Source: a virus
Lineage: Duplodnaviria > Caudoviricetes
IMG/VR virus record: IMGVR_UViG_3300031509_000001
Location: 2,136-66,135 of that record
Length of the DNA stretch: 64,000 nucleotides
Strand: one strand, 5' to 3'
Both the position numbers and the translations under genes were made by a program. The stretch's first letter is position 1; every line of letters starts with the position of its first letter. Positions 8,342 through 59,041 of this stretch are shown here, piece by piece. The notes beneath the pieces were generated by a model. That model worked only from the letters and a program-made list of their open reading frames with translations. It did no database searches and was not told the origin of the DNA.

Positions 8342-9766
8342 ATGTCCACCGCCACAGGCATAGTCGGCTCGGCGGCCAAGCGCTCCACGGTGCAATCATC
8401 TGCGGCCAACAAGGAGGCAGTGCAACAACAACTGCCGCCACACGACACAGAGACAGAACGCGCGCTGCTTTCTGCCTGCCTTGCTGATCCAGATGTGGTA
8501 CCGCGCGTCTACTCCCTAATCCGCGACCGGTATAAGATTTTCTGGGAACCGGCCCATCGGCTTGTGTACAAGGCCATCATCGAACTTTGGCAACAGGGCG
8601 TTCAGCCTGACATCATCTCAGTTTACAACAGGATTAAAACCTACCGAGATTCCTATGGTCGTTCTGGCGCAGATCTGGTGAGTGCGCAGGCCTTGGCCGA
8701 AATAGCCAACGCGCCGGCTTCATCGGCCAACGTTGAATATTACCATGACATCCTTCGCGCTCGTTATCTGTGTCGGCAATTGATTGCCTATGGCAAGAGG
8801 CTTGAAGAACTCGCCATGGCATGGACGGATGACACACCGCCAGATGAACTTTACAGCCGCGCCGTATCCGAGCTTTCCACGATTCGAGATGAATCTAACA
8901 CAGTCGATTACGTGCCCATCACGCAGACATTACGAGAGATTGATGAGGATTTGGGGCGTGTGATGAATGGCGATGTCATCATGGGGGCCACCACGGGCTA
9001 TTCTGATCTAGATCGCATTATCGGTGGCCTTCGTGCGCCTGACATGATCATTGTGGCCGCCCGCCCCAGCGTGGGCAAGACTGCCATGGCGCTCAACGTC
9101 GCCATGAATGCCATGGAGCGAAATGGCAATGACTTCTCTGTTGGCATTTTCTCACTGGAGATGAGCCGCAAGGACATCGTGACTCGCATGTTGTGTTCCA
9201 TGGCGCGCGTTGACACACGTTTTACCCGCGGCGGCACCATTACCAAGGATGAAGTCAATCGTCTTGCTTCCTGCGCCATGCGCATGGCCATGTATCGCGA
9301 TAGGATTGTGATTGACGATCGTTCTGGAATTTCGATAGGAGAGCTCTGCGCATCTGCGCGCATCATGGCCATGCGATTCAACATCAAGCTTTTGGTCATC
9401 GACTATCTGCAGTTGTTGCACAGTTCCCGAAGGCATGCCAATCGAAACGAAGAAGTGGCGCACATCAGTCACCAGATCAAAGCCCTGGCTAAAGAGCTGA
9501 ACATTCCCATCATCCTGATCAGCCAGCTCAACCGAAATGCCGCGCGCAGCGATTATCCGTCCATTGCAGACCTTCGAGACAGCGGAGTGGTGGAAGAAGA
9601 CGCGGACATCATCGCGTTGCTCCGCAAGGAAGACAGCCAGGAGCCAATTGTGGGGCTGGAAATGATCATAGCCAAAAACCGAAACGGCCCAACAGACACG
9701 GTGCCGTTTGTCTTCTTTAGGACGTGCCAACGAATTGAATTGCAAACCAAGACCGCCAATGTCTGA
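8342..9766 (+). CDS. dnaB: replicative DNA helicase DnaB
   Basis: Motifs AARPSVGKT, FSLEMS, IDYLQL, SQLNR, DLRDSGVVEEDAD, IAKNRNGP; N-terminal PPHDTETERALL domain. Confidence 0.97.
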   Translation: MSTATGIVGSAAKRSTVQSSAANKEAVQQQLPPHDTETERALLSACLADPDVVPRVYSLIRDRYKIFWEPAHRLVYKAIIELWQQGVQPDIISVYNRIKTYRDSYGRSGADLVSAQALAEIANAPASSANVEYYHDILRARYLCRQLIAYGKRLEELAMAWTDDTPPDELYSRAVSELSTIRDESNTVDYVPITQTLREIDEDLGRVMNGDVIMGATTGYSDLDRIIGGLRAPDMIIVAARPSVGKTAMALNVAMNAMERNGNDFSVGIFSLEMSRKDIVTRMLCSMARVDTRFTRGGTITKDEVNRLASCAMRMAMYRDRIVIDDRSGISIGELCASARIMAMRFNIKLLVIDYLQLLHSSRRHANRNEEVAHISHQIKALAKELNIPIILISQLNRNAARSDYPSIADLRDSGVVEEDADIIALLRKEDSQEPIVGLEMIIAKNRNGPTDTVPFVFFRTCQRIELQTKTANV

Positions 9767-16058: not shown

Positions 16059-17273
16059 TCACACATTCTTCATCAAAGGCATAATGTAGCAGCACTGCTG
16101 GTTCTGGCTGTCGACAAAAAAGACGGGCCAGGTGTCCCCATATACCTCAATGCGAATGGTCTCATCGCCCGTCACATCCAGGTAATCCAGCACATACTGG
16201 GGGTTGATGCGGACTTCTATCTTTTCCCCCTCATATGAGAGTGTTTTCACTCGCTCTGAAGCTCGGCCATACATGTGGCCAACGGATCGAATTCCGATGG
16301 TCTGGCCGAATGTCATGAAGATGCCGAAGGCCAACGGATCACGCGCCATTAAAGACGCACGCTGAACCGCCTTCAGCAAATCGGATCGATTCACGGTAAG
16401 CTGTGCTTTCACTGTCATGTCCTTGAGAAGCTTGCTGTAGTCAGGGTACTCATAATCAATCAGCTTGGCCTTTAGGCTGAGGCTTCCCACGCCGCGACAT
16501 TCAGAGCACTCCATGACAATGTGATCGTTATCCAGCGTCAGGTGCACCATACTGTCTTTCCGCGTCGCCAGCGTTAGAGAGTGAATCAGCAGGTCAGCGG
16601 CAAGTTCTGGCACTACATAGCACAGCACGCCCTTAGTAGTGCGGTCAATCTTCTTGTTGACCAGCGCAAGTCGTTTGCCGTCTGTCGATACCAGGCGCAA
16701 TGTCTCATCCTGGAACTCAAACAGTATGGACTGCAGCACATATCGACTCTCTTTGTTTGTAGCTACGGCATAACGTGTTCCCCGCAACATGCGAATCCAT
16801 TCTTCCGCGGCAAAACTCACAGTTATGTATGGCTTAGTCGGCAGAGGAGCATTCGTGTTGTACCAACTTCCGTCTACACTGGCCATGTCAGCCGGAAAAT
16901 CTTCTGGATTCGGCGTATCCAGGCAGTATTCCAGGTCTTCAGCTACCAGCATGACCTGGTTATCAGCCACCCAGGATATGTGTGTCTTCTCCTGATGCAT
17001 CAGCCTTACTAAAGGCATAGCGGTAATCATCGGCAGCAGCACATCCCGCGCTTTGTCCTCGTTGACCTTGCACGGGATTTCCACTGCCATGCGCGCGTCC
17101 AGCCCGGTGCAACAAATTTCTAGAATCCCAGGATAACCTGGGTTTCCGCTAGGTTTTTGCAACACCCGCGCGCGCGCGCATAACAGCGCCGGCGTGATTG
17201 CTCCCTTGGGCACCGCCGGAGCTACAATTGACAACGCCTCTCGCAATGCCTTGGTTTCAACGGTAACGTTCAT
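16059..17273 (-). CDS. dnaN: DNA polymerase III beta sliding clamp
   Basis: Start MNVTVETKALREAL; motifs ESRYVLQSILFE, LVSTDGKRLAL, KLIDYEYPDY, INPQYVLDYL, YIMPL; 404 aa. Confidence 0.93.
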   Translation of the reverse strand: MNVTVETKALREALSIVAPAVPKGAITPALLCARARVLQKPSGNPGYPGILEICCTGLDARMAVEIPCKVNEDKARDVLLPMITAMPLVRLMHQEKTHISWVADNQVMLVAEDLEYCLDTPNPEDFPADMASVDGSWYNTNAPLPTKPYITVSFAAEEWIRMLRGTRYAVATNKESRYVLQSILFEFQDETLRLVSTDGKRLALVNKKIDRTTKGVLCYVVPELAADLLIHSLTLATRKDSMVHLTLDNDHIVMECSECRGVGSLSLKAKLIDYEYPDYSKLLKDMTVKAQLTVNRSDLLKAVQRASLMARDPLAFGIFMTFGQTIGIRSVGHMYGRASERVKTLSYEGEKIEVRINPQYVLDYLDVTGDETIRIEVYGDTWPVFFVDSQNQQCCYIMPLMKNV

Positions 17274-17284
17274 AGCTACGCCCC

Positions 17285-17497
17285 CTATGCAAACAGTTCG
17301 TACATGATTCTTTGCCAATACAGCCGCGGTATTCCATTCACAACCTGTGTTGTGACTTCCCACAACCGCGGCTGTAAACCGGTGTGTGATGCAGCCGCCA
17401 TGCAAGCCACATCGAGATTGGTAAAGTAGTACTTGAACAGGACCCGCGGGCAATCTGAGGGCACCTCCAAGATGTAGTAGGAATGTGTGGGGTTCAT
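17285..17497 (-). CDS. small hypothetical protein
   Basis: 70 aa filling the gap between lysozyme and dnaN. Confidence 0.45.
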   Translation of the reverse strand: MNPTHSYYILEVPSDCPRVLFKYYFTNLDVACMAAASHTGLQPRLWEVTTQVVNGIPRLYWQRIMYELFA

Positions 17498-17510
17498 AGA
17501 GCACTACGGG

Positions 17511-17888
17511 TTATTTCAGTGCATTCAGCGCACTCTTGACCTTCTTCCAATAGACCAGCGTTGCCGGTTTTAGGTGCCCTTGTGGCCCCCCGTTATGCAC
17601 ACGGGCCACCATTTCCGCATTGGTCAGCGGCACCTTGTGCCTAATCATGTAGGCGCGCATGATGCGCTTGCTGCCTTCCAGTGTCCAACGCATGTCGGGC
17701 GTGATTCCCGGATCTACATCTTGCGCATCCCTGACATAGGCCATGTGGATTTGCGCAGGGCCGATAGCCTTGCCATTATCACCTACAGCCTTCAGATTGC
17801 CGCCAGATTCCACCTGCACAATGGCCCTAAAGATGCGGTCAAACGCGGCTTCTTCTTTTGGGTTCAATTGAATGGTCTTATCACTCAT
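17511..17888 (-). CDS. lysozyme-like muramidase (invertebrate/destabilase-type motifs)
   Basis: AIVQVESGG, GPAQIHMAYVRDA, ARVHNGGPQG, TLVYWKKV. Confidence 0.8.
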   Translation of the reverse strand: MSDKTIQLNPKEEAAFDRIFRAIVQVESGGNLKAVGDNGKAIGPAQIHMAYVRDAQDVDPGITPDMRWTLEGSKRIMRAYMIRHKVPLTNAEMVARVHNGGPQGHLKPATLVYWKKVKSALNALK

Positions 17889-19179
17889 TGCTGAGTTCTC
17901 CTATTGGCAAGTCATTTGATTCTTCCGTAGTATAGAGATTGAGAGACGGCTTGCGCGCGCCTTTGAGTTTCAGCAACCGCGGTGTGCCATCCCCGCTCTC
18001 TCTCAGACAATGGCCAATGGCACTGGCAATGTAATCGCGCGCTTCGCCTTCAGACATTTCAAATGCCATGGCGATCTCTTTCACCAGAGAGCTTACAGAC
18101 ATGTTGCAGCAGCGGAGCAACACCTCTTCTCCAAGCCCGCGATCGCGCAACACATTGAACGCGGTTACGGTGTCAGTAATCTGTTCGCGTTTTGCGGGCG
18201 GCGCTTTTCTCCAACCGAGTTCTTCCAGCTCGTCATCTGAGAGAGACAGCAACACGGATTTCGCCCCCTCAATCATGGCCTCAAGATCACTGCGGTAATG
18301 CATAATGATGCTGGCCAAACGCGGGTTTGACTGCAGCATGGCCCGGCTCGATTCCTGTCCTGCACCCAAAAGGAACCCTTGCAGCCTGGCTACACAAACG
18401 TGCTTGGCCTGGCACCACTTGCAATGCCAGCCAGCGATGAGGGTGGTGTCATCATCCATGGCGGCCATGAACAGCGCCTTCACCGTCATGGTCTTGCTCA
18501 CAACCGTTTCATGCCCAATCCAGTCTGAGTCTTCACACTCAATTGGGCCTTCTAGGTTGTACAGCGGGATTTTAATGTAGACCAGCCGGGCGCGTCGAAC
18601 CTGCGATACATCTCCGGATAAATACTGGTCAATGTAACCAGTTACTGCGGCCCACATCTGCCATGATTTGTCCGCAGTTTCCCCGATATCCTCCAGCATG
18701 GATCGATGTGGCTGTTGGATTGTCTTGTAATCGATCACCAGCAGATCTTTGGTAGACGGGTTGTACCACAGGCAGTCAGCCTTGGCGCTACCGATTTTAC
18801 TACCATTCCAATTGATGAACATGCGATGCTCAACGTACTGCTGAGCATGTTCTTCTGACATTCCGGCTGCATGCGCAACACACAGCATCGCGTTGTAGGC
18901 GTTGATTGCCATGTTGCCCCAGTTAAGCTCGCGTTTGATTCGCTCCACATCGCTCAACCCTTTGGGCATGGGCGGCTCAGGAATCGTTTCTCCGCGGGCA
19001 ATGCATTCAATGGCGGCATGCATGGCCGTTCCATCACGCATCGCATCGGTTTCAGCGCGTGGTACGGTTTCCTGGATCTTCCACGACCCCGGACATTTGG
19101 CAATCAGCCAAAGTCGAGATGCGGATGGAAGGCCGGCTCTCTCATCGACTATAGTGGATTGGAAAGTAGGCGTTTCCAT
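17881..19179 (-). CDS. DUF2800/Cas4-like PD-(D/E)xK exonuclease
   Basis: SASRLW...CPGS, GTAMH, ADC...LVIDYK, WQM, HCKWC...C. Confidence 0.85.
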   Translation of the reverse strand: METPTFQSTIVDERAGLPSASRLWLIAKCPGSWKIQETVPRAETDAMRDGTAMHAAIECIARGETIPEPPMPKGLSDVERIKRELNWGNMAINAYNAMLCVAHAAGMSEEHAQQYVEHRMFINWNGSKIGSAKADCLWYNPSTKDLLVIDYKTIQQPHRSMLEDIGETADKSWQMWAAVTGYIDQYLSGDVSQVRRARLVYIKIPLYNLEGPIECEDSDWIGHETVVSKTMTVKALFMAAMDDDTTLIAGWHCKWCQAKHVCVARLQGFLLGAGQESSRAMLQSNPRLASIIMHYRSDLEAMIEGAKSVLLSLSDDELEELGWRKAPPAKREQITDTVTAFNVLRDRGLGEEVLLRCCNMSVSSLVKEIAMAFEMSEGEARDYIASAIGHCLRESGDGTPRLLKLKGARKPSLNLYTTEESNDLPIGELSNE

Positions 19180-19207: not shown

Positions 19208-20509
19208 TCACACTAGCAAATCGTCAATAAAGGTTCCCTGCTCTTCGTTCTTCGGAGCACGCTGTGTCTGCGGTTGTTGAACCGAAACCTTCGGTGCCTG
19301 CGAAGATGTGCTAGCTGCTAGGTTTTTCAGGCCTTCGATCGTAGACGCAGGATCACTTAACAGTGAGTCGAGCCTCGATTCTGGCCACTGCGAAAAATCA
19401 GCGCCCCAGCCGACCTTCTTGGCCGCTTCTGCTAAACCAGTACGGTCAAGCCCCATGGACTGTGCCACAGCCAAAAGCTTCTCAATTTTCTCCGATTTGC
19501 TTAACGGGCGGTCCATATTGGTCTGTTGAACCTGCTTCTGCTGCTGCGACACAGATTGATCAGCAGTGGCTGCAACATTGGCCTTGGCGGCGGCGCCCCT
19601 GGATCGACCACCGGTGGCCCGCGGCTGGCTTTGCTGTTGAGCGACCTTGGGTTCCGGGCCAGCAGGGGATTCCTGTGGCTCTTGCTTTGGCTGAGTGTGC
19701 GTCTCTTGCGACTCAGTTGCGTCAGCCTCCTCGGATACCTCAGTGGCAAACGCTTCCTCAACCGTCATCTCACCATCGCGAATAGCTGCATAAATCCCAC
19801 GCAGCGTGGACAATTGTGCAGGAGTTAGGTTGTCCAGCGATTGCGCCCCGACCACACGGCATGCCACAATCTCTGATACGCCAACACGCCGCAGCCAATC
19901 GCGGATGCCCGCAATGGCCTTTGGCGTTACAGGTTGCTGGCGCTCGATTGCTTGCATTACAGTGTTAACCACAGAACGAGGAATAACGCGAAGAATCGCG
20001 TTCCTCAGCGCCTTGGAAATGGCCACCTGCTGGTAAATGATGCGCAGACGATCGTGGAGCGGTTTTCCATGGCGATCAAGCGTGGGCACGATCACTTCCT
20101 CATTCCCCCACGCATTCGTCTGAACGTCCCAGGCAGAGCCTCGAGCGCGGATGTATTCCGGACGACTCTCAATGACCGTTGCCCACACACGCAGGTTGCC
20201 CCAGTTTTGCATGATAATTTCGGCAAGCCTAATAGAGGGCCCCTTGACCACCTTGGTTTCTCCGCTTTCGCGGTCCCGGTAGCGCAGAGTGTAAACCATG
20301 GACTCCGAATCCATCAGGGCCTCGGCCACAATGGCCTGCATGGCCTTCTGCCGATCGCGCGGATAGGCCTTGGCGGTGGCCACCTGCACGTCAACGGCAG
20401 CCTTCTCAAGGTAGGTCACGATTTCAGGCTGCTGCGCAACTGCGGCAGGCTGGGCCGACATGATTTCGACAGGGTCATCGACGGGTTGAATTTGGTACTG
20501 CTTGGTCAT
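19208..20509 (-). CDS. putative single-strand annealing / recombination protein
   Basis: VQVATAKAYPRD...GPSIRLAEIIMQNWGN motif of a phage family often annotated RecT-like; next to the exonuclease; low-complexity Q/P/A C-terminal half. Confidence 0.65.
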   Translation of the reverse strand: MTKQYQIQPVDDPVEIMSAQPAAVAQQPEIVTYLEKAAVDVQVATAKAYPRDRQKAMQAIVAEALMDSESMVYTLRYRDRESGETKVVKGPSIRLAEIIMQNWGNLRVWATVIESRPEYIRARGSAWDVQTNAWGNEEVIVPTLDRHGKPLHDRLRIIYQQVAISKALRNAILRVIPRSVVNTVMQAIERQQPVTPKAIAGIRDWLRRVGVSEIVACRVVGAQSLDNLTPAQLSTLRGIYAAIRDGEMTVEEAFATEVSEEADATESQETHTQPKQEPQESPAGPEPKVAQQQSQPRATGGRSRGAAAKANVAATADQSVSQQQKQVQQTNMDRPLSKSEKIEKLLAVAQSMGLDRTGLAEAAKKVGWGADFSQWPESRLDSLLSDPASTIEGLKNLAASTSSQAPKVSVQQPQTQRAPKNEEQGTFIDDLLV

Positions 20510-20578
20510 GGCTTTGTTTGTGTTTGTGGTTCCGTCTCTCAATCAGTCTTGCGCACCATCTTTCGCAAGACTGCCGCC

Positions 20579-22039: not shown

Positions 22040-23503
22040 ATGATGAATGCGCAAGAATTGATCAAGGCAGCATGGACAGCCAGGGCTCCATTAATCTGGC
22101 TTCAGGCACCAGACACATTAGAGGCGTTAGACTACACTGTTGCCGCCGTAACCAACGGCGCCAAACCACCAAAGACTTGGACGTGGTCGCCTGTCACAGG
22201 ATGGGACAAAGGCAGGAAGGAACCACCTTCTCTCAATCCAACTGATGCGATACTTGAGATTGCTGAAGCGCCACAGGAAAGGACACTCTACGTGGCCAAC
22301 CGCCTTGGTGAAGGCCTTCAAAATGATGTTCCCTTTGCCGCTGCGTGTCAGCTTGCCAGAAGGAAACTGGCCGCCGTAGGTTCAACGCTGGTGTTTGTGG
22401 TGCCAAGCGGCACCTTGCCGCCGCCTTCTATTGCCGCCGATTTCATCCAAGTTTCCCTGCCATTGCCTGACGACAATACATCTACACAATTGGCGCAAGC
22501 CGTTGTAAATGATTACTTTGCATCGTCTCAAATAGCCAAAGAGTCTGGGCTCCAACCCGACAAGATTGTTCAAAATCTAACGCCCTACCTGCGTGGATTA
22601 ACACGCTTTGGCGTTGAACAAGTTGCCGCCGTTGCCGCGGTTGCATCAGCAAGGTCAAAGCAAATCGATATGGCCGCGGCACAAATCGCCAGGGCTCAAA
22701 TGTTGGCTACCGCAGGGCTCCGTGTGATCCAGCCAGAGCCAGTTGAACTTCCTGGCTTGGAAGGATTGACCGACTGGATCAGCCGCTTTCCGGTTCAAGC
22801 GGTTGTATGGATGGACGAAATCGAGAAGGCCATTGCCGGCTATGGGCTTGCTGGAAGGGGCGACAGCTCCGGCGTTACGCAGGATCAGCTTTCCGTGATC
22901 CTAACGACAATGCAAGAGTACAGGATGTTCGGTCTAATCCTAGTCGGCCCACCAGGCACAGGCAAAAGTGAATCGGCGAAACAAGCCGGCCTACGCCTTG
23001 GCGTGCCAGTCGTGCAACTCGACCTTGGAAGTCTGAAGGGTTCATACGTAGGTGAATCCGAACAACGTGTCCGCAGAGCCATGGCCGCAATTGCTGGGCT
23101 TGGACGCGTGATGGTGATTGCAACGTCCAACGGGATTGATTCAGTCCCACCAGAATTAAGACGTAGGTTCGCTCTTGGAACCTGGTTTTGCGACTTGCCA
23201 GACACAATGGACCGCGCTAAAATCTGGGCTGTGTGGGGCTGGAAGTGCAAAATCGACGACAATTGGACCGACTTGGCCGCGGCTAGTGAAGGATACGCAG
23301 GTAGTGACATTGCAATGGCTTGCACCATCGCATCAGCCACAGGCCGCCCCATCCGTGAAGTGATGGAAAGAATCACGCCAGTCGGCGTTGTGGCCGCCGA
23401 ACTGCGTGCAAGACTTCAACAGGCCGCCGCAGGCCGTTGGCTTTCCGCTAAAACGGGCAAAGTTTGCCCGTTAACACCGCAAACAAGGAAATTCACCGAC
23501 TGA
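22040..23503 (+). CDS. Ycf46-like AAA+ ATPase with rearranged motif order
   Basis: VWMDEIEK, GDSSGV, GPPGTGKS, LDLGSLKGSYVGESE, IATSN, PPELRRRF, FCDLP, GYAGSDI. Confidence 0.9.
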   Translation: MMNAQELIKAAWTARAPLIWLQAPDTLEALDYTVAAVTNGAKPPKTWTWSPVTGWDKGRKEPPSLNPTDAILEIAEAPQERTLYVANRLGEGLQNDVPFAAACQLARRKLAAVGSTLVFVVPSGTLPPPSIAADFIQVSLPLPDDNTSTQLAQAVVNDYFASSQIAKESGLQPDKIVQNLTPYLRGLTRFGVEQVAAVAAVASARSKQIDMAAAQIARAQMLATAGLRVIQPEPVELPGLEGLTDWISRFPVQAVVWMDEIEKAIAGYGLAGRGDSSGVTQDQLSVILTTMQEYRMFGLILVGPPGTGKSESAKQAGLRLGVPVVQLDLGSLKGSYVGESEQRVRRAMAAIAGLGRVMVIATSNGIDSVPPELRRRFALGTWFCDLPDTMDRAKIWAVWGWKCKIDDNWTDLAAASEGYAGSDIAMACTIASATGRPIREVMERITPVGVVAAELRARLQQAAAGRWLSAKTGKVCPLTPQTRKFTD

Positions 23504-23804: not shown

Positions 23805-23983
23805 ATGCTACTAGGAAAAACCACCGTTGGACTTGGCTCCGCGTTGACAGCATTGGCACACACGTATGGCGTTGCCAGAAGTGCGGATTGGTCAAATACG
23901 TGGCCATTATCAAGAACCGCAGTGTCACGTGGTACAACGTTAACAACACCATTAGCCAGCAAAGGCCAAATTGCGTCTTATGA
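23801..23983 (+). CDS. small Zn-ribbon protein
   Basis: HRW...CQKCG...PNC; ATGA overlaps at both ends. Confidence 0.55.
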   Translation: MNATRKNHRWTWLRVDSIGTHVWRCQKCGLVKYVAIIKNRSVTWYNVNNTISQQRPNCVL

Positions 23984-24198
23984 AGAATACCATTGATATC
24001 ACAATCACCGAGGACGGGCGCGTCATCATCAGAACGTCGAGCATTGCATCGGCCGACCACCTTGCGGCCGAACGTATGCTAGCTGAACTACCAGCTTTGC
24101 TTGGTTCAGAGTCGGTACAACGGAGCCGATTGCCTAGCCAGGCACAACACCAACACCATCATCACCAACACCATGACCATGAGCACCACGAACACTGA
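23980..24198 (+). CDS. DUF2997-like small protein with His-rich tail
   Basis: IDITITEDGRVII...LPALLG; C-terminus HQHHHHQHHDHEHHEH. Confidence 0.55.
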   Translation: MKNTIDITITEDGRVIIRTSSIASADHLAAERMLAELPALLGSESVQRSRLPSQAQHQHHHHQHHDHEHHEH

Positions 24199-30309: not shown

Positions 30310-32157
30310 ATGGCAGCAAGTAGAATTGCGCAACCGCGGAGGCGGTCACTCTTTTCGTCGCCTGGATCCTCGTGGTCGGCAGTGAGTCTCGGAGGTGCGC
30401 TGTTGGACACGCTCAGCGATCCGCCGAGGCCTGATGCGATTCGGTTTCGTTTGAACATGGAGCTTACCAGAGGGGGTGGAGAAGGGGCAGGTGGCCCTAT
30501 GGAGGTTCGCCCAAGGCAAGGTTTTATCCCCCTTTGGTTCAACGGGATTGGGGTTCCTGCGTACTGGGGTAAGGATGTAGACCTGCGGATTCAACAGCCT
30601 TCGGAGACGTTGCCACGGCTTGAATTGCGGTTGGTCAATGAATTTACGCGGAGTGATGGAGTTGGCCGGTTGTGGGCCTTTGGTGTGAAGCGAGTGGGGT
30701 ACGAATGGGGCGGGACTGGAGCGTGGGTGTTGAATGAGCCCGGATTAGACTGGAGGGCCCTGACGATGCCGTCCTCATGGCAGGGGCAGGGGTTTGACTG
30801 GGCTTACGGGTATGAGGTCCCACAAATTGCACAGATGCATGACAAGCTGATTTACGTAGCTTCGGGGACCAAGCCCTTTGCGATCGACATGCACACGTAT
30901 GCCCTGGAGAAAATACCGAGCCTTACCGAAGGTCAAGGAGGGCTCGATCCTGTCACCGAGGCCAAGGTTTGTCTGGCGCACAAGGGGATGATCCTGTTGA
31001 TGAACCTGCGCATGGGTGGGGTGGATTGCCCTACTCGCGTGGTCTGGTCGGACATTAACCGGTTATACTTTGGCTTGCAGGATTTGGATGGAGTGGCTCC
31101 TGTGACCGGCTGGCAGGACCTTGAATACGGGGATGAGATCGTGGCTGCAGGGGAGTTGCACGACCAGATTGTGATTTACACAAGACGCGCGATCTGGACG
31201 ATGCGTTTCCTGCCGACCACGAACAGTCTTTGGGCGTGGCGCAAGGTTTACGATGACAAGTCGGGCCGCTCAGGTTTGCCCGCGTATCGGTTTTCGCTGG
31301 TGTCAGATGGGCGCTTTCACTACTACGTGGGATATGACGGCATCTACAGGTTCAACCCGCTGATGACGCAGCCGGAACGAGAGGCATGGATCGATGCCGC
31401 ATCAGGCCTGATGTTCAAGCCTGACTCGAGACTGCGAATCAACCCGCTTGCACGGAATTCCGTTATCGGGGCTAAGGTGCCCACTACAGACGAGATCTGG
31501 TTCAGTTGGCTGAGCGCTGATGCAGGTGGGTGGACACTGTGTCTGAACATCCCCAAACAGTACGCTGATTACATGGACGTTGGCTGGCAAGCGCTGGGTG
31601 GGTTCCGTGCGTTCGGTAGAAATGAACCGATTCCGATCGGTGTTTTGTACGATGACAACACGATCAAGCATATTCAGGCCGGGTTTAGTCGTTATGTGTA
31701 TGAGATAACGCCGGAAGAGCGTCTGAGGCCGTTGTTGGGTAAACAGGTTGGCCCAAGTGGCTACCTTGTGTTGGCGTATGGGTTTGTTCCGGGGGCTGGT
31801 GGTGTGTCAAGGACACGTTTGACTGCTGTCCGTGCCGAGATGGGCCGGTTGAGCGGCGATGCTATTGGTCTGGGCCTCAGGACGACCTCGGCGGCCAGGT
31901 TGATCGATCCTAACCGACAACTGATGCGTCTGGCGGCTCCGGCGCCGCTACAGTTTCGAGACTGGGGCGTGGCGAGGGTTTATGCGACCAGCAACGACCA
32001 GGAGATTTTAACCTGGGCAACGCAGGAGGAGGGTGTTTACATCATCTGGGAACTTACCGTGGGTCACCCAAACGACACCAGTGCGCTTTCAGGGGGAAGC
32101 ATTTCACTGGGGCACCTGTTGTTTGAGATCGCGCCGGTTGGCGTTACTCCCTACTAG
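30310..32157 (+). CDS. tail tubular / head-closure beta-propeller protein (P22 gp10 / T7 gp12-like)
   Basis: 615 aa, beta-rich; RVVWSD, GDEIVAAGELHDQIVIYTRRAIW, YYVGYDGIYRF, DEIWFS. Confidence 0.65.
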   Translation: MAASRIAQPRRRSLFSSPGSSWSAVSLGGALLDTLSDPPRPDAIRFRLNMELTRGGGEGAGGPMEVRPRQGFIPLWFNGIGVPAYWGKDVDLRIQQPSETLPRLELRLVNEFTRSDGVGRLWAFGVKRVGYEWGGTGAWVLNEPGLDWRALTMPSSWQGQGFDWAYGYEVPQIAQMHDKLIYVASGTKPFAIDMHTYALEKIPSLTEGQGGLDPVTEAKVCLAHKGMILLMNLRMGGVDCPTRVVWSDINRLYFGLQDLDGVAPVTGWQDLEYGDEIVAAGELHDQIVIYTRRAIWTMRFLPTTNSLWAWRKVYDDKSGRSGLPAYRFSLVSDGRFHYYVGYDGIYRFNPLMTQPEREAWIDAASGLMFKPDSRLRINPLARNSVIGAKVPTTDEIWFSWLSADAGGWTLCLNIPKQYADYMDVGWQALGGFRAFGRNEPIPIGVLYDDNTIKHIQAGFSRYVYEITPEERLRPLLGKQVGPSGYLVLAYGFVPGAGGVSRTRLTAVRAEMGRLSGDAIGLGLRTTSAARLIDPNRQLMRLAAPAPLQFRDWGVARVYATSNDQEILTWATQEEGVYIIWELTVGHPNDTSALSGGSISLGHLLFEIAPVGVTPY

Positions 32158-32833: not shown

Positions 32834-35800
32834 TTACAACTCCTCTACATCAATACTGACAACATGTACGCCTTGCATGTAGTAGGCCCAAACATCGGCG
32901 CCTTCCCCCGGAAAGTATCCGTGGCCCTCATAGCAGTATTGCGCACCGCCGCCGGGGCCTCGCCAGGTGGCACAGTCCACACACCGGAAGTATTTTTCTT
33001 CCTCGGGATAATGGCCAGCGGCTGTCTGCTGCTCAATGGCCACGCTTTGGAGTTGGGGCCAGATAAAGGTTTCAAACCAGCCCGCATTGGTGGTGCAATG
33101 CGGCCAGAACCAATCTGACGGACGTCCGGGGGCCTTGAGATACTGGATGAAAGGCTGGGTCTGCCAATTCGGTTGGTTCTTGAGCGTATGCCAACGGATC
33201 ATGTGTGGCAGCATTTGCGAGCGTGCATAGGGCCAGACGATTGCCGTGCTGTTATCCGAAGTAGACAGGTACAACCCCAGGGCCAGGTCTGGGTTGTTTC
33301 CGGCAGTTACTTGGAACTCAAAGGTGCTATCCAACAGGGCAATGGGGAATGGACTCAGCAACAGAGACATCACCGTGCTGTTCTGTGGCAGGCCGTAATC
33401 GGTAATCACAAGGTTGTCTCGCCATAGCGAAGCATTGCGAAGCGATGGCCACTGAGGCAGGACAAGGGCCGGATGTCCACCCGGGTCTTCGGAAGCTGTG
33501 GCTACAGGCATGGCTGTGGTATTCAATGTCCAGACTTCAAGTGGTTGGTCGGTAGATCGATTGTACAGACTCAGCATGTAAAGGTTGAACCCAACGGCTG
33601 CCCCGGCAAACCTAAGGATGTCCGGATGTGCCCCCGGCCTGGCCCAAAGTGATGGATCCAGTTTGGCATGAACGATGGGCGCCCAGGAGCGGACGGCTGC
33701 ACAGCCGCCCAGGTTGGCATAACTTCCGGATCCGGACAGATACTGTGTTTCCAGCTTGTTCAACAGCCCAGCGTGGAAGTTGGGGTGTCCGTGATGGAGC
33801 GAGGTATGATGAAAAATGAAGTCTGGGGACCAGTCCCACATTTCCCACGCACCCGACGGCCCTGTCCACGTAACCCATTGCCATTGCCAGATTCGTTCCT
33901 GCGCCGTAAGGCCCCAGTACCTCTGCCAGCCAGCCGACCATTCCAACCCTAGTGGAGTCATCCGGTTCTCTGTCACAACATCCCATCCGGCTGGCCGGTA
34001 CGGGTCGTACAACAGAGGGCTCACATAACACGGCTTGAAATCCAGAATGCCCTCGCCTGTGTTGCGCCTGGTTAGTTGGCGCAGCTCCACACAACCCCAA
34101 AGCCGCACACGGACTCGGAATGTCCCCGCGCGATCAACGCCGTGCTCGGACAGCGGTACCCAACTGATGGTGCGCAACTCAGTTGGGTGAAGATTGTTTT
34201 CGCCAAATACAACGTTGGGCATGTGCGAGCAGTGATATTTCTCGCAGTAGGGCTGTCCCGTATACTCGTTCGGGTCACCACTTGGGTTGATGCCCACGCC
34301 GCTGTACCAGCGTGCCTTTCGGGAGCCGACAGCAACACCAGCCATGCTGCGTTCGCTGCCTTCAGGTGGCTCGGGCGGTGGTTCTGGGGCGCCTGACGGG
34401 CAGTCTAACCGTTGAACAGTCTGAGGTGTAATCTTTTGTCTTTGCAGTGCAATGGGGACGCTCAGTATTGGTGTGTCATTCGGCCCTGGCGGCATTTGCC
34501 ACGGAGGAACGTCCAGGCCGGCGGCGGCTTCATCTGACGTGACACATTCGTATGCTGAGGCTCTGTAATTGCCTGTTGGCACGGCCCCCAGTTCAATGTC
34601 CTGTGGGACATTGGTCGGCATGGGCATTGGGGTTGGGACAAGGCCGCGTGCATAGGGCGGGCACCCTTCCCCATCACAGAGAACATGGTTTGGATTTTGT
34701 GCGCAAGGGTTGGGCAGCTCAATAAAGTTCTCCTGCGAGAAGTCATCCTCCAGAACCGGCACACGATCCGTGTCGTTGTGGAATCGAACTGAGTCAATCA
34801 ACAGCCCTGCTGTGCCGGTAACATCCACTGCAAGCTGCGCAATTTCGATAATGACATCCGTTTGATTTTGCGTCGGCGTGTATTCCAGACGCAATTCTGT
34901 CCAGGCAGCTTGATGCGTATTGAAGTCAAGCACACGCGAAGCAAGCTCAACCCTTGTACCTGCCGTCACGTAATAAGGCGGGCGCATGGCCGGATGCGCG
35001 CCGGCCAACATGTCTGCATCACGTGTGCGGTCGTGATGCTCTGTTGGATAGTTGCTGTCGTTCTTGTTGTACGCGGCCAGCTTGTACCACTGGCCGGTAG
35101 TAGCCGAGTGTTTCCAGACGATGACCCGGTCAAAGCCCGTGGGGAAACTGGTGGTGTTGGGCAGGGCGATGCGGACCACCGCCTTGCGCCTGGTCACGCT
35201 GGCGCTGGTGGGGTTGGCGGAAGGCATGGATTGCCCGCCGTTGTCATCCTGCCATGTAAATGCGTACTGATAGGTTTCCTCTGGGATGGTGACGTTCTCC
35301 GGATCGTTCGGGTCGCCATCCTCTACGAGTGGAGCGGCCGGGTCCGGCGCTGCGCCCACGGAAGGAACGTCATCCAGCCGAATTAAGCTGATTTTTACCT
35401 TGTCTGTTCTGCCTAAAGGCAGTGCAACCCGGTTATTGGGCGCACAGACCACGCTGAGCCTGTACTTCTTGTTGGCAGTCAGCGGATAGCGGTTGATGGA
35501 CCACAAGACCGGCTGTTGACCGTCCACGGACAGCAAATCCATGTACTGGCCGCTGCCCGGCATGACATCCCAAAGGCCGTTGCCCAGCAAACGACTGGTG
35601 CCTCTGTCCACCCACCAGTACTGCCAGCTTGCGTAGGACAGGTCCGGCCTAAGTATACTGTGCCCGCCGTGGTAGCAGTTCATGCCACACAGTCCGGCCA
35701 GCTCTCCGACCAACTGCAGATACGCAGGATGTTCATCGAGCGATCGAAAACTGACGTTGTGCACAGCTCGGATGTTGTAGCCGGGGCGGGCAAAGATGGC

Positions 35801-36703
35801 CGAGGTCAACGCTCCGTCTACACTGGGCGCAACGGCATAGCTGACGATCGTGACACCGAGAGACTGAATGAGCTGGAGCTTGTGGCGTATTGCGTCACTG
35901 TTCTGATTCGCTGTGATCTGGAAGTCGGACAGAATGCAAAGGATGGGGATGGTTTGTTCTCTGGCTTCCGGGTGTGCGGGGTCGTTCAGCAGGGCGTCAA
36001 AGTAGCTGTAGGCATAGTCCAGCAGCATAGTAAACGATGTCTTGTGCTGCGTGGCGGACATGGAGGCAGCGCGTTGGCGCAGGATCGCCCTTTCTGCACT
36101 GGCCGGTGTGCTGATGGGGATGACCTGTTCATGAGTAAATCCGATGATGGCGGCCTTGTTCTTGCGCAGGTTAAGTTTCTGCAGCAGATCGTTCAGCCAG
36201 TACTTGGTGGCATCCAGGCGGCGTCCAATCCGACCGATCGACATGGTCATGGACTCGGTTAGGTCGACGGCAAACAGGATGTGAGCACTCAAAGCCGCGC
36301 AGCAGGAATACGGGTCGTCGGAATCCAGGACTCGCACCGTCATGACTGCGGCGTACTCGGTATTGCGGTAGCGCATGCTGGCGCGCACCTGAGCAAGGCC
36401 AGGCTTCACGCCGATCAGCAGGCCATAGGATCCCCACTGCAATACGGACGGGTTGGAGCTGGTGACCGTGACATGTTCGGTCACGTCCTCCTCGATGTAC
36501 CGAGAGGCCAGCCTGCCTGATTCGATTGTGGTTCGGGCCATGACAACCCGCGTTGCCACGGCCAAACCCTTGCAGAGAGTGTCGCGCTGTGGCCAGAAGA
36601 GAAGCTCGCGCGTTTCCGTACTGATCGGTGCCCCTGGGATTTCACCCGGCCAGGTAAGACACTCGCGTACGCGATAGATGACGTTGCCAATCGTGCTATT
36701 CAT
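32834..36703 (-). CDS. large virion protein with Ig-like (Big_2) and vWA domains
   Basis: VTSSNPSVL...GVKPGLAQVRAS (Ig-like); ILFAVDLTESM, AAIIGF, TSF and CILSDFQ (vWA/MIDAS-like). Confidence 0.7.
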   Translation of the reverse strand: MNSTIGNVIYRVRECLTWPGEIPGAPISTETRELLFWPQRDTLCKGLAVATRVVMARTTIESGRLASRYIEEDVTEHVTVTSSNPSVLQWGSYGLLIGVKPGLAQVRASMRYRNTEYAAVMTVRVLDSDDPYSCCAALSAHILFAVDLTESMTMSIGRIGRRLDATKYWLNDLLQKLNLRKNKAAIIGFTHEQVIPISTPASAERAILRQRAASMSATQHKTSFTMLLDYAYSYFDALLNDPAHPEAREQTIPILCILSDFQITANQNSDAIRHKLQLIQSLGVTIVSYAVAPSVDGALTSAIFARPGYNIRAVHNVSFRSLDEHPAYLQLVGELAGLCGMNCYHGGHSILRPDLSYASWQYWWVDRGTSRLLGNGLWDVMPGSGQYMDLLSVDGQQPVLWSINRYPLTANKKYRLSVVCAPNNRVALPLGRTDKVKISLIRLDDVPSVGAAPDPAAPLVEDGDPNDPENVTIPEETYQYAFTWQDDNGGQSMPSANPTSASVTRRKAVVRIALPNTTSFPTGFDRVIVWKHSATTGQWYKLAAYNKNDSNYPTEHHDRTRDADMLAGAHPAMRPPYYVTAGTRVELASRVLDFNTHQAAWTELRLEYTPTQNQTDVIIEIAQLAVDVTGTAGLLIDSVRFHNDTDRVPVLEDDFSQENFIELPNPCAQNPNHVLCDGEGCPPYARGLVPTPMPMPTNVPQDIELGAVPTGNYRASAYECVTSDEAAAGLDVPPWQMPPGPNDTPILSVPIALQRQKITPQTVQRLDCPSGAPEPPPEPPEGSERSMAGVAVGSRKARWYSGVGINPSGDPNEYTGQPYCEKYHCSHMPNVVFGENNLHPTELRTISWVPLSEHGVDRAGTFRVRVRLWGCVELRQLTRRNTGEGILDFKPCYVSPLLYDPYRPAGWDVVTENRMTPLGLEWSAGWQRYWGLTAQERIWQWQWVTWTGPSGAWEMWDWSPDFIFHHTSLHHGHPNFHAGLLNKLETQYLSGSGSYANLGGCAAVRSWAPIVHAKLDPSLWARPGAHPDILRFAGAAVGFNLYMLSLYNRSTDQPLEVWTLNTTAMPVATASEDPGGHPALVLPQWPSLRNASLWRDNLVITDYGLPQNSTVMSLLLSPFPIALLDSTFEFQVTAGNNPDLALGLYLSTSDNSTAIVWPYARSQMLPHMIRWHTLKNQPNWQTQPFIQYLKAPGRPSDWFWPHCTTNAGWFETFIWPQLQSVAIEQQTAAGHYPEEEKYFRCVDCATWRGPGGGAQYCYEGHGYFPGEGADVWAYYMQGVHVVSIDVEEL

Positions 36704-36705
36704 GG

Positions 36706-39255
36706 TCAATCGTAACACTGGAGGCCGATACCGTATGAGACCCTAATCACATACTCAGAACCACACAATGTCGTTAGCTCGTCTTTAAACTCAGACACCT
36801 TCTGCGCCAGTTCGTCGCCAGCCTTGCGATTTGCCTCGTTTTTAGCGTCACTTGCCGATTGCTCTGTAATCTCTCCTGCTTCATTGGGCTTGGCTTGCAC
36901 ACAGTACTTGCCGGCATCAACGACGTGGCGTCGTTGCAGCCCTGGATTGTCGCTGCAATACACTGTCACGCACATGGCGTCATTGCAATACACACATCCG
37001 CGGTTGCGCAATTGCTCTTTGGCCTTCTGGCATGCTTGTTCCCATGCGGCGCGATCTGCATCCTCCTGTGTTTCCCTCTTCGTCTGTCCTGCTTCAACGA
37101 TCGCCTTGGCGCAGGTCCTGTGCGCCGGGCTCTGATAGTCACCCTCCTCGATTTTCGGGCAGCAAATCTCACATTCCTGCGTCGTATTCGATATGCCGCA
37201 CTCGCACACATTCATCAGTGTCGACATGAGATAGTACCTGCCATACCCCTCAGCCAAGCGATTCGCCTCTTCCTTGCTGCGTGCACGGACGTAGTTTTCG
37301 GGGACCTTCAATTGGAGGCATTGCGGCCCTTGATCCCGTGCTCGACATCCGATGTCTTCACAGCACATGACCATTTCGATGGGGTCGTTGCCTACCCATG
37401 ATCCTGCGTCGCCGCCACCAGAGCCTCCGTCCCCGGTCGCAGTTCCTCCGCCACCGGCGCCGCCGCCTCCGCCTCCGCCACCGCCACCGGTTCCTCCTCC
37501 GCCGGTCCCGGTTCCGCCAGTGCCACCACCGCCAGAGCCGCCGGTTCCACCTCCTCCGGTTCCTCCTCCGCCGGCTCCTCCGCCGCCTGTCCCTGTGCCA
37601 CCGCCAGGGCCCCCGAGGCCAGAGCCAACATCTGACGAATCGCGTGACCCAACGTCAACCAAAATGCCACCACCCCCACCCCGTGGGACTACTGCAGGAG
37701 GCGTCGACGGAACCACTATCGGGGCTTCTTCTTCGTCCCGTGGAGTCGGCGGTGGGGGTGGCGGTAAAGGCGGTACTCCTGGATCGCCGGGTTGGCCAGG
37801 TTGCCTGGGATCCACTACACCGGTGTCAGTGGGAACAATTCTGGGCAGCCTCTCATCAACTGTAGTACGGCTATTGGTCGGAATGATTTGCAGTTCTTTG
37901 CGGACATCCAATTCAGGCCTGGCAACGCCATAGACAGAAGCCACCGTGCTGGCCACGTCAAAGTCATTGGCGGGTAGAGCGCGGTCAAGGCATTCATACA
38001 TCAGACGCGCGCGCACTTCATTGTATTCGCGCAGGGCCACCGCTGCGGCATCAGCATCTCGCCGCTGCACCAGGTTCCACCGATAGGCAGCCCACATCGC
38101 ACATGCTCGTACCAGTGTCGGGTCATCAGGAATCCAATCCTGCTCCTGCCAGTAGTTTTTGTTGCCTGTCCAGTGGACAATCACGCTTTCATAGCTCTGA
38201 ATCCACGGCGCCAGCAGGATCAGATTGTTGTGTACTGTCCACACGCCAGACAGGCTGCGCCCTGCAGACGAATCAGGTATGCGCGTTGGACGCAAGAATC
38301 CCATCGGCAGTGCGTCGCCTGATGCTGCAATGTCCAGTGCAAGATCAGAGCGCGGCACGGCTTCAAACGCCTTTGGACCGGATATGGACATGTCCAAACG
38401 GAAAAAGTCGCCAATACAAATGCCACGTTCAATAATCTGTCGGCTTACCACGTCGTACCATCGCTGGAACAGGCCGGATGGCACGTACTGGTACGGCACA
38501 TAACCGCACCACTCGGTTTGCGTGGTTAGCATGGCCGGATTGGCTGAGTAGGGCGGACCGTAGACGTACACATCTGCGCCGTAAAGGACCTCGGGCTCGT
38601 AAATTGGGCCGGTGATTTCCTCGATTTCCAGCCAGACAATGGTGTTGCTGTTGGACGGGATGAGGACGTCAAATGTCTCTTCCTTGTTTGCTGCTACCCG
38701 GACGTCGAAGGATTGCTTGGCAACGTTGCGGCGGAGTGTCGGATGCCAGTGGCTGTTGTCGCTGGGGATGGCTGATGCGTAGTACACTGCGCCCCTGTAT
38801 CGGATTTCAGGCCAGGTTGGCGGCACAGCAGGCACGGTAACCGAGTGTTTGAACACAATACGCACACCGATCTGAAACTCCAGCCTGGCCCGGAAAATCA
38901 CATGCACATCAGTCCGGTTAAGCCGCAGCATGTCATGAAACAGGTATGTCCAGTGCCGCAGTTGGAGCCCGGTTTCAAAGGGCGTGCTTGGCTGGATATC
39001 GGGAGTTCGTGTAGCGACCGTGCCCACTGCCAGAACCTGTCCATCGGGCTTGGGAACGGCCGATGTGCCGCACTTGTACATGGTCGAGCAGTGCGGCACC
39101 ATGTCGATCAAATTCCGCTGCAAGCAAGGCACCCAGAGCTGCAGATCACGCAACGCCTCAACGGCGTACTGGTTCCAATGCACACCATAACCCCTCGCAT
39201 AGCCCGTAGGGGCTGCAATCTTCAGCATGGCATGCTTGAGTTCTGCAAAGGTCAT
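36706..39255 (-). CDS. neck/tail adaptor-like protein with Gly/Pro linker and Cys-rich DUF5977-like repeats (paralog 2)
   Basis: Start MTFAELK (ATGA overlap); aligns with 39252-41753. Confidence 0.65.
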   Translation of the reverse strand: MTFAELKHAMLKIAAPTGYARGYGVHWNQYAVEALRDLQLWVPCLQRNLIDMVPHCSTMYKCGTSAVPKPDGQVLAVGTVATRTPDIQPSTPFETGLQLRHWTYLFHDMLRLNRTDVHVIFRARLEFQIGVRIVFKHSVTVPAVPPTWPEIRYRGAVYYASAIPSDNSHWHPTLRRNVAKQSFDVRVAANKEETFDVLIPSNSNTIVWLEIEEITGPIYEPEVLYGADVYVYGPPYSANPAMLTTQTEWCGYVPYQYVPSGLFQRWYDVVSRQIIERGICIGDFFRLDMSISGPKAFEAVPRSDLALDIAASGDALPMGFLRPTRIPDSSAGRSLSGVWTVHNNLILLAPWIQSYESVIVHWTGNKNYWQEQDWIPDDPTLVRACAMWAAYRWNLVQRRDADAAAVALREYNEVRARLMYECLDRALPANDFDVASTVASVYGVARPELDVRKELQIIPTNSRTTVDERLPRIVPTDTGVVDPRQPGQPGDPGVPPLPPPPPPTPRDEEEAPIVVPSTPPAVVPRGGGGGILVDVGSRDSSDVGSGLGGPGGGTGTGGGGAGGGGTGGGGTGGSGGGGTGGTGTGGGGTGGGGGGGGGGAGGGGTATGDGGSGGGDAGSWVGNDPIEMVMCCEDIGCRARDQGPQCLQLKVPENYVRARSKEEANRLAEGYGRYYLMSTLMNVCECGISNTTQECEICCPKIEEGDYQSPAHRTCAKAIVEAGQTKRETQEDADRAAWEQACQKAKEQLRNRGCVYCNDAMCVTVYCSDNPGLQRRHVVDAGKYCVQAKPNEAGEITEQSASDAKNEANRKAGDELAQKVSEFKDELTTLCGSEYVIRVSYGIGLQCYD

Positions 39256-45520: not shown

Positions 45521-45846
45521 GGCTGTACTGCAATCGTGGTTCTCGTCGGCTTGATTTGACCTTGTCGTATGGCTTCCAACATCCTAATTGCATTCAAAAT
45601 CCACTTCACCTCTAGCCATGACTTGTCACGCCTGTCAAGTGCCTCAGCTAGATAAGAGCTACACGGGCTACCGTTTTGGTCGGCGAGTTTGATGGAGTCT
45701 TCTATCGCCTGTGAGGCAACCTTGCGCGCCTCAGACAGCAGCGTTTCCAGCAGCATGTCATAACATTCAGAAGCCAGCCATGCATCCCATCGCTGGAGTG
45801 CATCCGGAGTGATGGGCCGTTCCTGGATTGGGAAAAGCTGGTTCAT
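45517..45846 (-). CDS. small protein between portal and scaffold
   Basis: ATGA overlaps; position typical of podovirus head operons. Confidence 0.65.
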   Translation of the reverse strand: MNQLFPIQERPITPDALQRWDAWLASECYDMLLETLLSEARKVASQAIEDSIKLADQNGSPCSSYLAEALDRRDKSWLEVKWILNAIRMLEAIRQGQIKPTRTTIAVQP

Positions 45847-51237: not shown

Positions 51238-51626
51238 GCTATCGTGGATACATCCCCAATTTTACCCCACCGTTTCAGTTGGTTCTACCAAGCCGGCCCA
51301 CCGAACAGCCCATTGTATTCGGCACACAGGACCCAGAGGGGGTGGTGCCAGGAGCGCCAGGGCAGTACTACGTCAACACCAACACGATGCGAATGTGGCT
51401 CAAACTCGGTGGTGTCCAGGAACTCGGATGGAAAGAGGTGGGCATCTACGTCCCCGGCGGCGATGGAGGCGGCGGTGGCGGCACCGTCCTGGCCGGAAGC
51501 TACGACAACCCGAACGGCCTCATCTTGGCCGCAGCGCCAGCTCTCTACTACAGCTTTAATGGAACCGTATGGGCCAAAGGCACGACACAACTTTCAACTG
51601 AAGGATGGTACCAACTCATAGGCTGA
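51234..51626 (+). CDS. fibre-associated virion protein
   Basis: Two repeats of G..P.G...G..G..Y......W.K......GW. Confidence 0.6.
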   Translation: MSYRGYIPNFTPPFQLVLPSRPTEQPIVFGTQDPEGVVPGAPGQYYVNTNTMRMWLKLGGVQELGWKEVGIYVPGGDGGGGGGTVLAGSYDNPNGLILAAAPALYYSFNGTVWAKGTTQLSTEGWYQLIG

Positions 51627-59025: not shown

Positions 59026-59041
59026 TGGATTCACATTGCCT

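Follow-up and report, generated by a model that had tools for sequence, protein, structure and literature searches.

The gene examined here, P0001, lies in the 64,000-nucleotide stretch that spans positions 2,136 to 66,135 of the IMG/VR virus record IMGVR_UViG_3300031509_000001 (Duplodnaviria; Caudoviricetes), a stretch referred to below as the window, and it encodes an AAA ATPase in which the Walker B motif comes before the Walker A motif. The two motifs stand in the same frame and on the same strand, and their inverted order is neither a chance resemblance nor an error of assembly. From the comparisons set out below, the protein is very probably genuine, under selection and part of an extensive family of classical-clade AAA ATPases (SpoVK/Ycf46/Vps4-like) found in phages and prophages. 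In this family a single ancestral exchange of the β3-α3 unit with the β1-α1-β2-α2 unit would have kept the fold and the ATPase chemistry at the cost of rewiring three loops.

The classical AAA core runs β1 (Walker A)-α1-β2-α2-β3 (Walker B)-α3-β4 (sensor 1). In P0001 this order is broken, with VVWMDEIE starting at residue 255 (nt 22802) ahead of GPPGTGKS at residue 303 (nt 22946), followed by VMVIATSN at residue 357 and PPELRRRF at about residue 370, giving the linear order β3-α3-β1-α1-β2-α2-β4 (Table 1). In comparison with Cdc48, the profile of segment B (residues 251-296 with homologues, alignment A4) maps to residues 582-620 of the D2 domain, which are the Walker B strand and the next helix (E 6e-5), and segment A maps to residues 523-573. 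In the direct matches residues 298-348 of P0001 fall on Cdc48 523-573, and residues 334-426 on Cdc48 601-699. The Pfam AAA profile (PF00004) recognises the protein at 54.9 bits against a cut-off of 21.2, with residues 299-350 on profile positions 1-52. Its match is confined to two separate stretches because profile domain models assume that Walker A precedes Walker B. The AAA_2 profile reaches the Walker B part weakly (residues 240-286, profile positions 63-98, E 0.036), and phrog_8638, listed in PHROGs as of unknown function, matches in three stretches (E 4e-33, 115.8 bits).

What is it, then, that makes this a classical AAA domain? Judged by its residues the domain is one in the chemical sense, since it carries both the GxxGxGK[ST] Walker A and the hhhhDE Walker B of the classical clade, but it departs from the linear order by which that domain is also defined. 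The polar sensor-1 residue on β4 (ATSN) and the arginine fingers of the second region of homology are likewise present, their roles being assigned through the Cdc48 alignment, and the lid motif (GYAGSDIA / GWTGAEI) aligns with the Cdc48 lid. Walker B, Walker A, sensor 1 and the arginine fingers are located where a preliminary description of this DNA had put them, and with the Pfam and Cdc48 matches that description proves exact. That description had also spoken of an internal rewiring as opposed to a circular permutation; this holds for the chain as a whole, although formally the change is a circular permutation of the internal block from β1 to α3 between fixed flanks.

Table 1. Segments of the ATPase P0001 and of the genes that follow it, in window coordinates.
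Feature	Position	Strand	Basis or remark
AAA ATPase with exchanged core segments (P0001), 487 aa	22040..23503	+	entire gene, single open frame
N-terminal domain, aa 1-225	22040..22714	+	N-segment HMM; also present in canonical-order relatives
α0 / linker, aa 226-250 (..PGLEGLTDWISRF..)	22715..22789	+	feeds β3 here, not β1
Segment B, aa 251-296: β3 with Walker B (D259, E260), loop, α3 (..LSVILTTMQE)	22790..22927	+	displaced to the front; maps to Cdc48 D2 582-620
Walker B core VVWMDE, aa 255-260	22802..22819	+	motif; conservation in 341 distinct members
Segment A, aa 297-355: β1, P-loop, α1, β2, pore-loop-1 position (KGSYVGESE), α2	22928..23104	+	HMM, Cdc48 match
Walker A GPPGTGKS, aa 303-310	22946..22969	+	motif; K309 conserved
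Segment C, aa 356-487: β4 with sensor 1 (N364), Arg fingers (R374-R376 in PPELRRRF), β5, helical lid (..GYAGSDIA..)	23105..23500	+	HMM, Cdc48 match
DUF1257 (Ycf35)-like gene, 93 aa	23523..23804	+	cluster c8 HMM E 6e-12; c8 vs DUF1257-bearing c4 hhalign 95%, E 3e-8
DUF2997-like gene, 75 aa, His-rich tail (..HQHHHHQHHDHEHHEH)	23971..24198	+	c7 HMM E 3e-25; c5 HMM E 5e-5; c7 vs c5 hhalign 96%
DUF3150-like gene, ~300 aa	24101..25069	+	PF11348 in 11 of 31 cluster members

A large family with Walker B ahead of Walker A

A chimeric contig or a mis-join across 22750-23120 could in principle produce such an order, a fair concern where one metagenomic record (66,135 bases, 88% complete) is at issue, and one that the preliminary description had itself raised. 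No support for this explanation was found. Nine studies of hot springs and microbial mats include metagenome runs in which the gene is detected, and the record itself comes from metagenomes of hot springs or microbial mats. A contig of 10,516 bases from run X4 covers it entirely with 48 substitutions, no gaps and no joints, and a contig of 2,177 bases from run X5 is colinear with it over 22523-23503, so that contigs from independent runs span both segment junctions. By our count 36 of the 40 differences listed in these contig comparisons fall at third codon positions, which is a signature of purifying selection. The cluster of P0001 at 90% identity holds six proteins of differing provenance, the longest of their contigs measuring 71 kb. 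The same order is common to all 341 distinct homologues typed, which were drawn from numerous assemblies, among them the genome of a cultured phage and metagenome-assembled genomes (MAGs) with contigs as long as 4.7 Mb. The chance that the order is artefactual is thus practically nil, the idea being already refuted by the contig coverage together with typing by split hidden Markov models (HMMs).

The breadth of the family emerged from searches of increasing depth. A word-index search gave 71 matches, of which 36 (P0002-P0037) have Walker B first, the remainder, starting with P0038, being either canonical in order or eukaryotic AAA proteins with several domains; a second word-index search with alignment A1 as query added no new sequences. 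An exhaustive search of representatives returned 6550 proteins at E<=1e-3, 640 of them at E<=1e-30, and the best 150 of the 6550 are all colinear with P0001 in a single stretch across B, A and C. When motif patterns were applied to 147 new identifiers, Walker B was first in 141, the canonical order was found in none and six gave no call.

The order was then typed with split HMMs cut from alignment A1, namely N (residues 1-225), α0 (226-250), B (251-296), A (297-355) and C (356-470). In the swapped family these occur as N-α0-B-A-C and in the canonical relatives as N-A-B-C, there with abutting coordinates. Among all sequences fetched, 352 (341 distinct) are of the B-A-C type and 35 of the A-B-C type. 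Other proteins with DEIEK before GxxGxGKS, for which the preliminary description had proposed a search, therefore exist in number. Since the order is kept family-wide in hundreds of diverged relatives, with every catalytic residue retained, it has the look of a natural and working rewiring.

The members come from several sources. One is a gene of a cultured phage, gp103 of Tunturiibacter phage Tunturi_3, which has Walker B first and is annotated just as 'ATPase'. In IMG/VR, 234 stretches are related to the swapped family, the best 80 of which were retained for analysis. In species-representative prokaryote genomes there are 371 related stretches, and the best 80 of these, likewise retained, all have B before A. 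The prokaryote-genome members are mostly in MAGs of Acidobacteriota (Bryobacteraceae, Terriglobia), Planctomycetota, Armatimonadota, Nitrospirota and Myxococcota. Several Acidobacteriota/Bryobacteraceae MAGs carry four copies of the swapped gene each, on separate contigs that are in some cases megabase-sized (L109, L113, L114 and L126 in one MAG; L125, L150, L165 and L169 in another; L145, L151, L156 and L167 in a third), which suggests multiple prophages or another multi-copy element. Some members (P0194, P0115, P0198) contain inteins near sensor 1 or directly after the P-loop; these proteins are 650-900 residues long and match Intein_splicing, LAGLIDADG_3 and Hom_end_hint.

How often did the exchange occur? 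A tree was built from 79 rows, of which 34 comprise all the canonical sequences and 45 are swapped (P0001, P0003, P0220, every second A1 member and 25 random swapped sequences). Alignments were made segment by segment and compared in a common order over 437 columns; the LG+G4 search was quick and the root was placed on the Vps4-like rows. The 45 swapped rows group together without exception in one clade, with support of 100 in the Shimodaira-Hasegawa-like approximate likelihood-ratio test (SH-aLRT) and a stem length of 0.65. Within it P0001 and P0003 are sister to the remaining 43 rows. The clade is nested in a polytomy of canonical-order relatives, such that one change of state suffices. Most canonical relatives with a match to the N-segment HMM score 47-102 bits, with P0055 at 20 and P0057 at 11. 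The tree gives the swapped order a single origin, in an ancestor of canonical order.

Fold and catalysis after the proposed exchange

Is the fold kept when its strands are visited in a different order? The sheet of AAA+ domains has the strand order 5-1-4-3-2, which makes specific predictions about which strands should covary. Mean-field direct coupling analysis (DCA) was applied to the swapped family alone, with 337 distinct sequences (352 less one removed for gaps and 14 duplicates; effective number, Meff, 254), 250 columns and 29,890 pairs. The pairings β3-β4, β1-β5 and β1-β4 are favoured over the never-adjacent β1-β3, β1-β2 and β2-β4. For instance, β3 and β4 are joined by D259-T362 (rank 13), M258-V359 (rank 31) and V256-V359 (rank 56), β1 and β5 by L301-C384 (rank 16), and the best β1-β4 pair stands at rank 84, whereas the best β1-β3 pair is at rank 1748 and β1-β2 lies beyond rank 3000. 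Helices α2 and α3 are coupled at ranks 9, 10 and 23 in an i+4 register (286-344, 290-348, 294-352), and α0 and α1 at ranks 4, 17 and 27. The pattern overall would fit the canonical core, although β4-β5 and β2-β5, which are not neighbours in that sheet, reach equal or higher scores.

With the sheet in place, the exchange would require only three loops to be rewired, such that α0 leads to β3 and not β1, α3 leads to β1 and not to its neighbour β4, and α2 leads to β4 and not to its neighbour β3. The topology would permit such a rewiring, since each helix is led to a strand just one or two positions away from its original target and the crossovers would all remain right-handed, with the helices staying on their faces. 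In the consensus lines the lengths of the three junction loops are close to those of their canonical counterparts. We infer that the three-dimensional fold is unchanged and that the three loops alone differ, on the strength of residue couplings and residue conservation; a lookup in the ESM Atlas gave no model for P0001 or for its DUF3150-like neighbour. In this form the claim that a β3-α3 unit sits in front of β1-α1-β2-α2 with its catalytic residues intact draws support from the split HMMs, from the near-invariant residues and from an order that is family-wide and of single origin.

The N-terminal domain deserves separate mention. In local mode hhalign aligns it (residues 1-225) with a whole AAA domain colinearly but weakly (E 0.022, 186 columns), an example being RTLVLLGP..P.EL..DV...PLPDD against VATAN..LPPEL..F..DLP, and in global mode its comparison with a canonical AAA domain yielded nothing. 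The domain may be a degenerate AAA domain of canonical order, in which case the swapped proteins would be two-tier and D1/D2-like. We considered and rejected a reading that assigns DEIEK to the N-terminal domain and has the second domain simply losing its Walker B, because segment B follows an α0 region that is colinear with the canonical relatives and because it couples with β4 and α2.

The order could be real without the domain being a self-contained AAA fold, if β3-α3 were to complete the sheet of a neighbouring protomer, as a three-dimensional domain swap within the ring, or that of the degenerate N-terminal domain. The connection from α0 to β3 must bridge two strand positions through a short linker (GxxxPxA), couplings cannot separate contacts within a chain from those between chains, and the N-terminal domain may, on its weak match, be AAA-like. 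Such an arrangement is nevertheless very improbable, as the three new loops are similar in length to the canonical loops that they replace, no extra linker length is conserved and, reasoning from the 5-1-4-3-2 sheet, rewiring within a single chain is topologically possible.

The catalytic residues were counted over the 341 distinct swapped-family sequences, some of which are only 26% identical. The Walker A lysine K309 is present in 340, the Walker B residues D/E259 and E260 in all 341, the sensor-1 asparagine N364 in 339, and the arginine fingers R376 and R375 in 339 and 331, respectively. It is this conservation, held down to 26% identity in the Walker B glutamate, the sensor-1 asparagine and the arginine fingers, that makes a catalytically dead or repurposed scaffold, such as a nucleotide sensor without hydrolysis whose motor was disabled by the swap, very improbable. 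Such a scaffold would accord with the long branch (0.65) leading into the swapped clade and with the scarcity of an aromatic residue at pore loop 1, but the consensus of the canonical-order relatives likewise has SLVG at the pore-loop position, and the inteins target the P-loop and sensor-1 sites.

The explanation that we favour is accordingly one of rearrangement with function retained. In one ancestor the β3 (Walker B)-α3 unit and the β1 (Walker A)-α1-β2-pore loop-α2 unit would have traded places between flanks that stayed fixed, namely the N-terminal domain and α0 before them, and β4 with sensor 1, the arginine fingers, β5 and the lid after them. The most likely origin would be a tandem duplication of the block from β1 to α3, after which copy 1 would have lost its first half and copy 2 its second. 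Traces of this route were found neither as B-A-B or A-B-A intermediates among all the sequences typed with the split HMMs nor as DNA repeats at the segment junctions of the gene. The resulting protein would be a ring of the classical AAA type that hydrolyses ATP, with its arginine fingers acting in trans.

Several observations weigh against this explanation. The AAA_lid_3 profile (PF17862) matches P0001 with 20 bits, below its cut-off of 27.2 (E 5e-4). The tree was built on segments extracted with HMMs made from the swapped family, its LG+G4 search was a quick one and it sampled 45 of the 206 swapped rows that had been typed. Among the couplings, β2 and β3, which should pair, are linked weakly (best rank 412), an unexpected β4-β5 pair appears at rank 28 and β2-β5 exceeds β2-β3 (sum of the top three 2.22 vs 1.93), in an analysis of modest depth that is not benchmarked against coordinates. 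The pore-loop-1 position, Tyr in P0001 itself, is Leu in 260 of the 341 members and aromatic (Tyr, Phe) in just 40. A threading unfoldase mechanism is therefore not assured, and remodelling of complexes is as likely as unfolding. Lastly, the proteins encoded beside the ATPase fall in DUF families alone, without PHROG or NCBIfam names.

The gene module and its surroundings

The swapped ATPase does not stand by itself. Clustering of the neighbourhoods of 82 viral loci revealed, on the same strand, a protein of ~310 residues, two alternative clusters of ~100-150 residues and two alternative clusters of ~65-75 residues. The first is DUF3150-like, with PF11348 found in 11 of its 31 members (best E 1.3e-7); the mid-sized clusters are DUF1257 (Ycf35)-like, members of c4 and c8 having Pfam DUF1257 matches, and the small ones are DUF2997-like, a member of c5 matching PF11211 at E 5e-13. 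Among the 82 viral swapped loci a DUF1257-like gene is present in 75, a DUF2997-like gene in 78 and a DUF3150-like gene in 80. The corresponding figures for the 80 prokaryote-genome loci are 15, 71 and 67, and for the nine canonical-order loci fetched with alignment A2 they are 6, 9 and 9. The swapped ATPase thus takes the position that its canonical-order orthologues have in this module, which argues for the same function. Its job would accordingly be that of those orthologues, working with the DUF1257-like, DUF2997-like and DUF3150-like proteins, and it would probably remodel proteins or complexes while infection is in its early or replication phase.

Some details of the module may be added. 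Loci carry one or the other of two sets of small genes, c4/c5/c6 or c8/c7, and a further gene of ~90 residues (cluster c6) often joins them (loci L002-L091, L095-L174). The DUF3150-like gene of the window probably starts at the Met of codon 25, nt 24173, and the end of the DUF2997-like open reading frame (ORF) overlaps this probable start. PHROGs and NCBIfam gave no names for the module neighbours except phrog_23133 (unknown function) for the DUF2997 gene, and the profile of the DUF3150-like neighbour had no match in the PDB below E 0.35. Further afield, the flanking phage genes include a DnaB-like helicase (phrog_19), a clamp-like protein (phrog_947), an exonuclease (phrog_69), phrog_3657 and a virion protein (phrog_3287), these replication and structural ORFs lying at 8342-9766, 16059-17504, 17881-19179, 19208-20542 and 30310-32157. 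Pfam at E 1e-4 returned no family for seven large ORFs of the window (808-2258 residues; 31-6807, 59036-64000, 32834-36718, 36706-39378, 39252-41753, 45843-48356 and 51605-54031), and the two at the window ends encode 2258 and >1654 residues.

Relation to known AAA proteins and significance

The closest comparison is provided by the canonical-order ATPases of the same module (for example P0041-P0051, loci L083-L091), relatives of the kind that JGI names 'SpoVK/Ycf46/Vps4 family AAA+-type ATPase'. They have the same N-terminal domain, the same A, B and C segments, the motifs GPPGTGKS, KGSLVGESE, VVWxDExEK, MQD and xATxN in common with the swapped proteins, and the same neighbours on the same strand (DUF3150-like, DUF2997, DUF1257 and cluster c6). 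They differ in running N-A-B-C as opposed to N-B-A-C, and the swapped proteins form a clade apart (SH-aLRT 100). Among proteins of known structure, the D2 domains of Cdc48, p97 and VAT and other classical AAA domains are the best matches to the family profile (E about 1e-37). Segment C corresponds to about 601-699 of Cdc48, with A and B placed as above, and the Walker motifs, sensor 1, the arginine fingers and the GAD/GAE lid motif are all present in the swapped protein. The swapped family differs from Cdc48/p97 in its mostly non-aromatic pore loop 1, and its second AAA-like domain, if there is one, would be the degenerate N-terminal domain. In each of the 60 best PDB chains the best-scoring stretch covers segment A alone, in contrast to the single stretch over B-A-C seen in family members, and none of these chains therefore appears to be swapped.

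Permuted P-loop proteins do exist elsewhere, and the preliminary description had called such swaps rare among P-loop NTPases. The circularly permuted GTPases, YlqF/RbgA and YjeQ/RsgA, are P-loop NTPases with the motif order G4-G1-G3 that keep their fold and activity, and to our knowledge they are the sole precedent for a permuted P-loop family. They belong to the TRAFAC class and result from circular permutation of a whole domain, whereas in the swapped AAA proteins two adjacent internal segments of an ASCE/AAA+ core are exchanged and the domain termini are unchanged. A literature search on permuted AAA+ proteins or Walker B before Walker A, on Tunturi_3, on the module DUFs and on phage Ycf46 brought up no description of the arrangement, with coverage that was incomplete and leaves room for an earlier one.

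A further parallel leads to cyanobacteria and plastids. Their Ycf46 is an AAA protein of the same broad subfamily with canonical order (types P0038 and P0040), and in cyanobacteria Ycf46 itself is linked to DUF1257 and DUF2997. These two families adjoin each other in cyanobacteria (PMC4284462). In the phage module both accompany an AAA gene, together with the DUF3150-like gene.

On balance, though with less assurance than attaches to its reality as a family, no natural AAA+ (ASCE P-loop) family with a non-circularly permuted core, its Walker B strand and helix lying ahead of the P-loop unit, would have been recognised before this one. It would be a fully active ring ATPase in which the inter-subunit signalling loop after α3, and also α2, feed different strands. 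A canonical ancestor would have given rise to it a single time, with later dispersal among phages and prophages of Acidobacteriota, Planctomycetota, Armatimonadota and others, and it would serve as the motor of a four-gene module (AAA, DUF1257, DUF2997, DUF3150).

The significance of this is that (i) the order Walker A to Walker B has been treated as a constant of the P-loop ASCE ATPases, and here a large selected family breaks it, and (ii) the AAA core would tolerate the rewiring of three loops, including the loop after α3, which in classical AAA proteins carries the inter-subunit signalling motif. A practical consequence is that annotation with colinear profiles under-calls swapped AAA proteins. 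The family also draws attention to a widespread phage module of AAA, DUF1257/Ycf35-like, DUF2997 and DUF3150 proteins that is related to the enigmatic Ycf46 and Ycf35 genes of cyanobacteria and plastids. With orthologous canonical-order controls in the same module, it would offer a natural experiment on how connectivity bears upon folding order, nucleotide-state signalling and pore-loop coupling, and as such it is of high interest for the evolution of protein folds and for the mechanism of AAA+ proteins.

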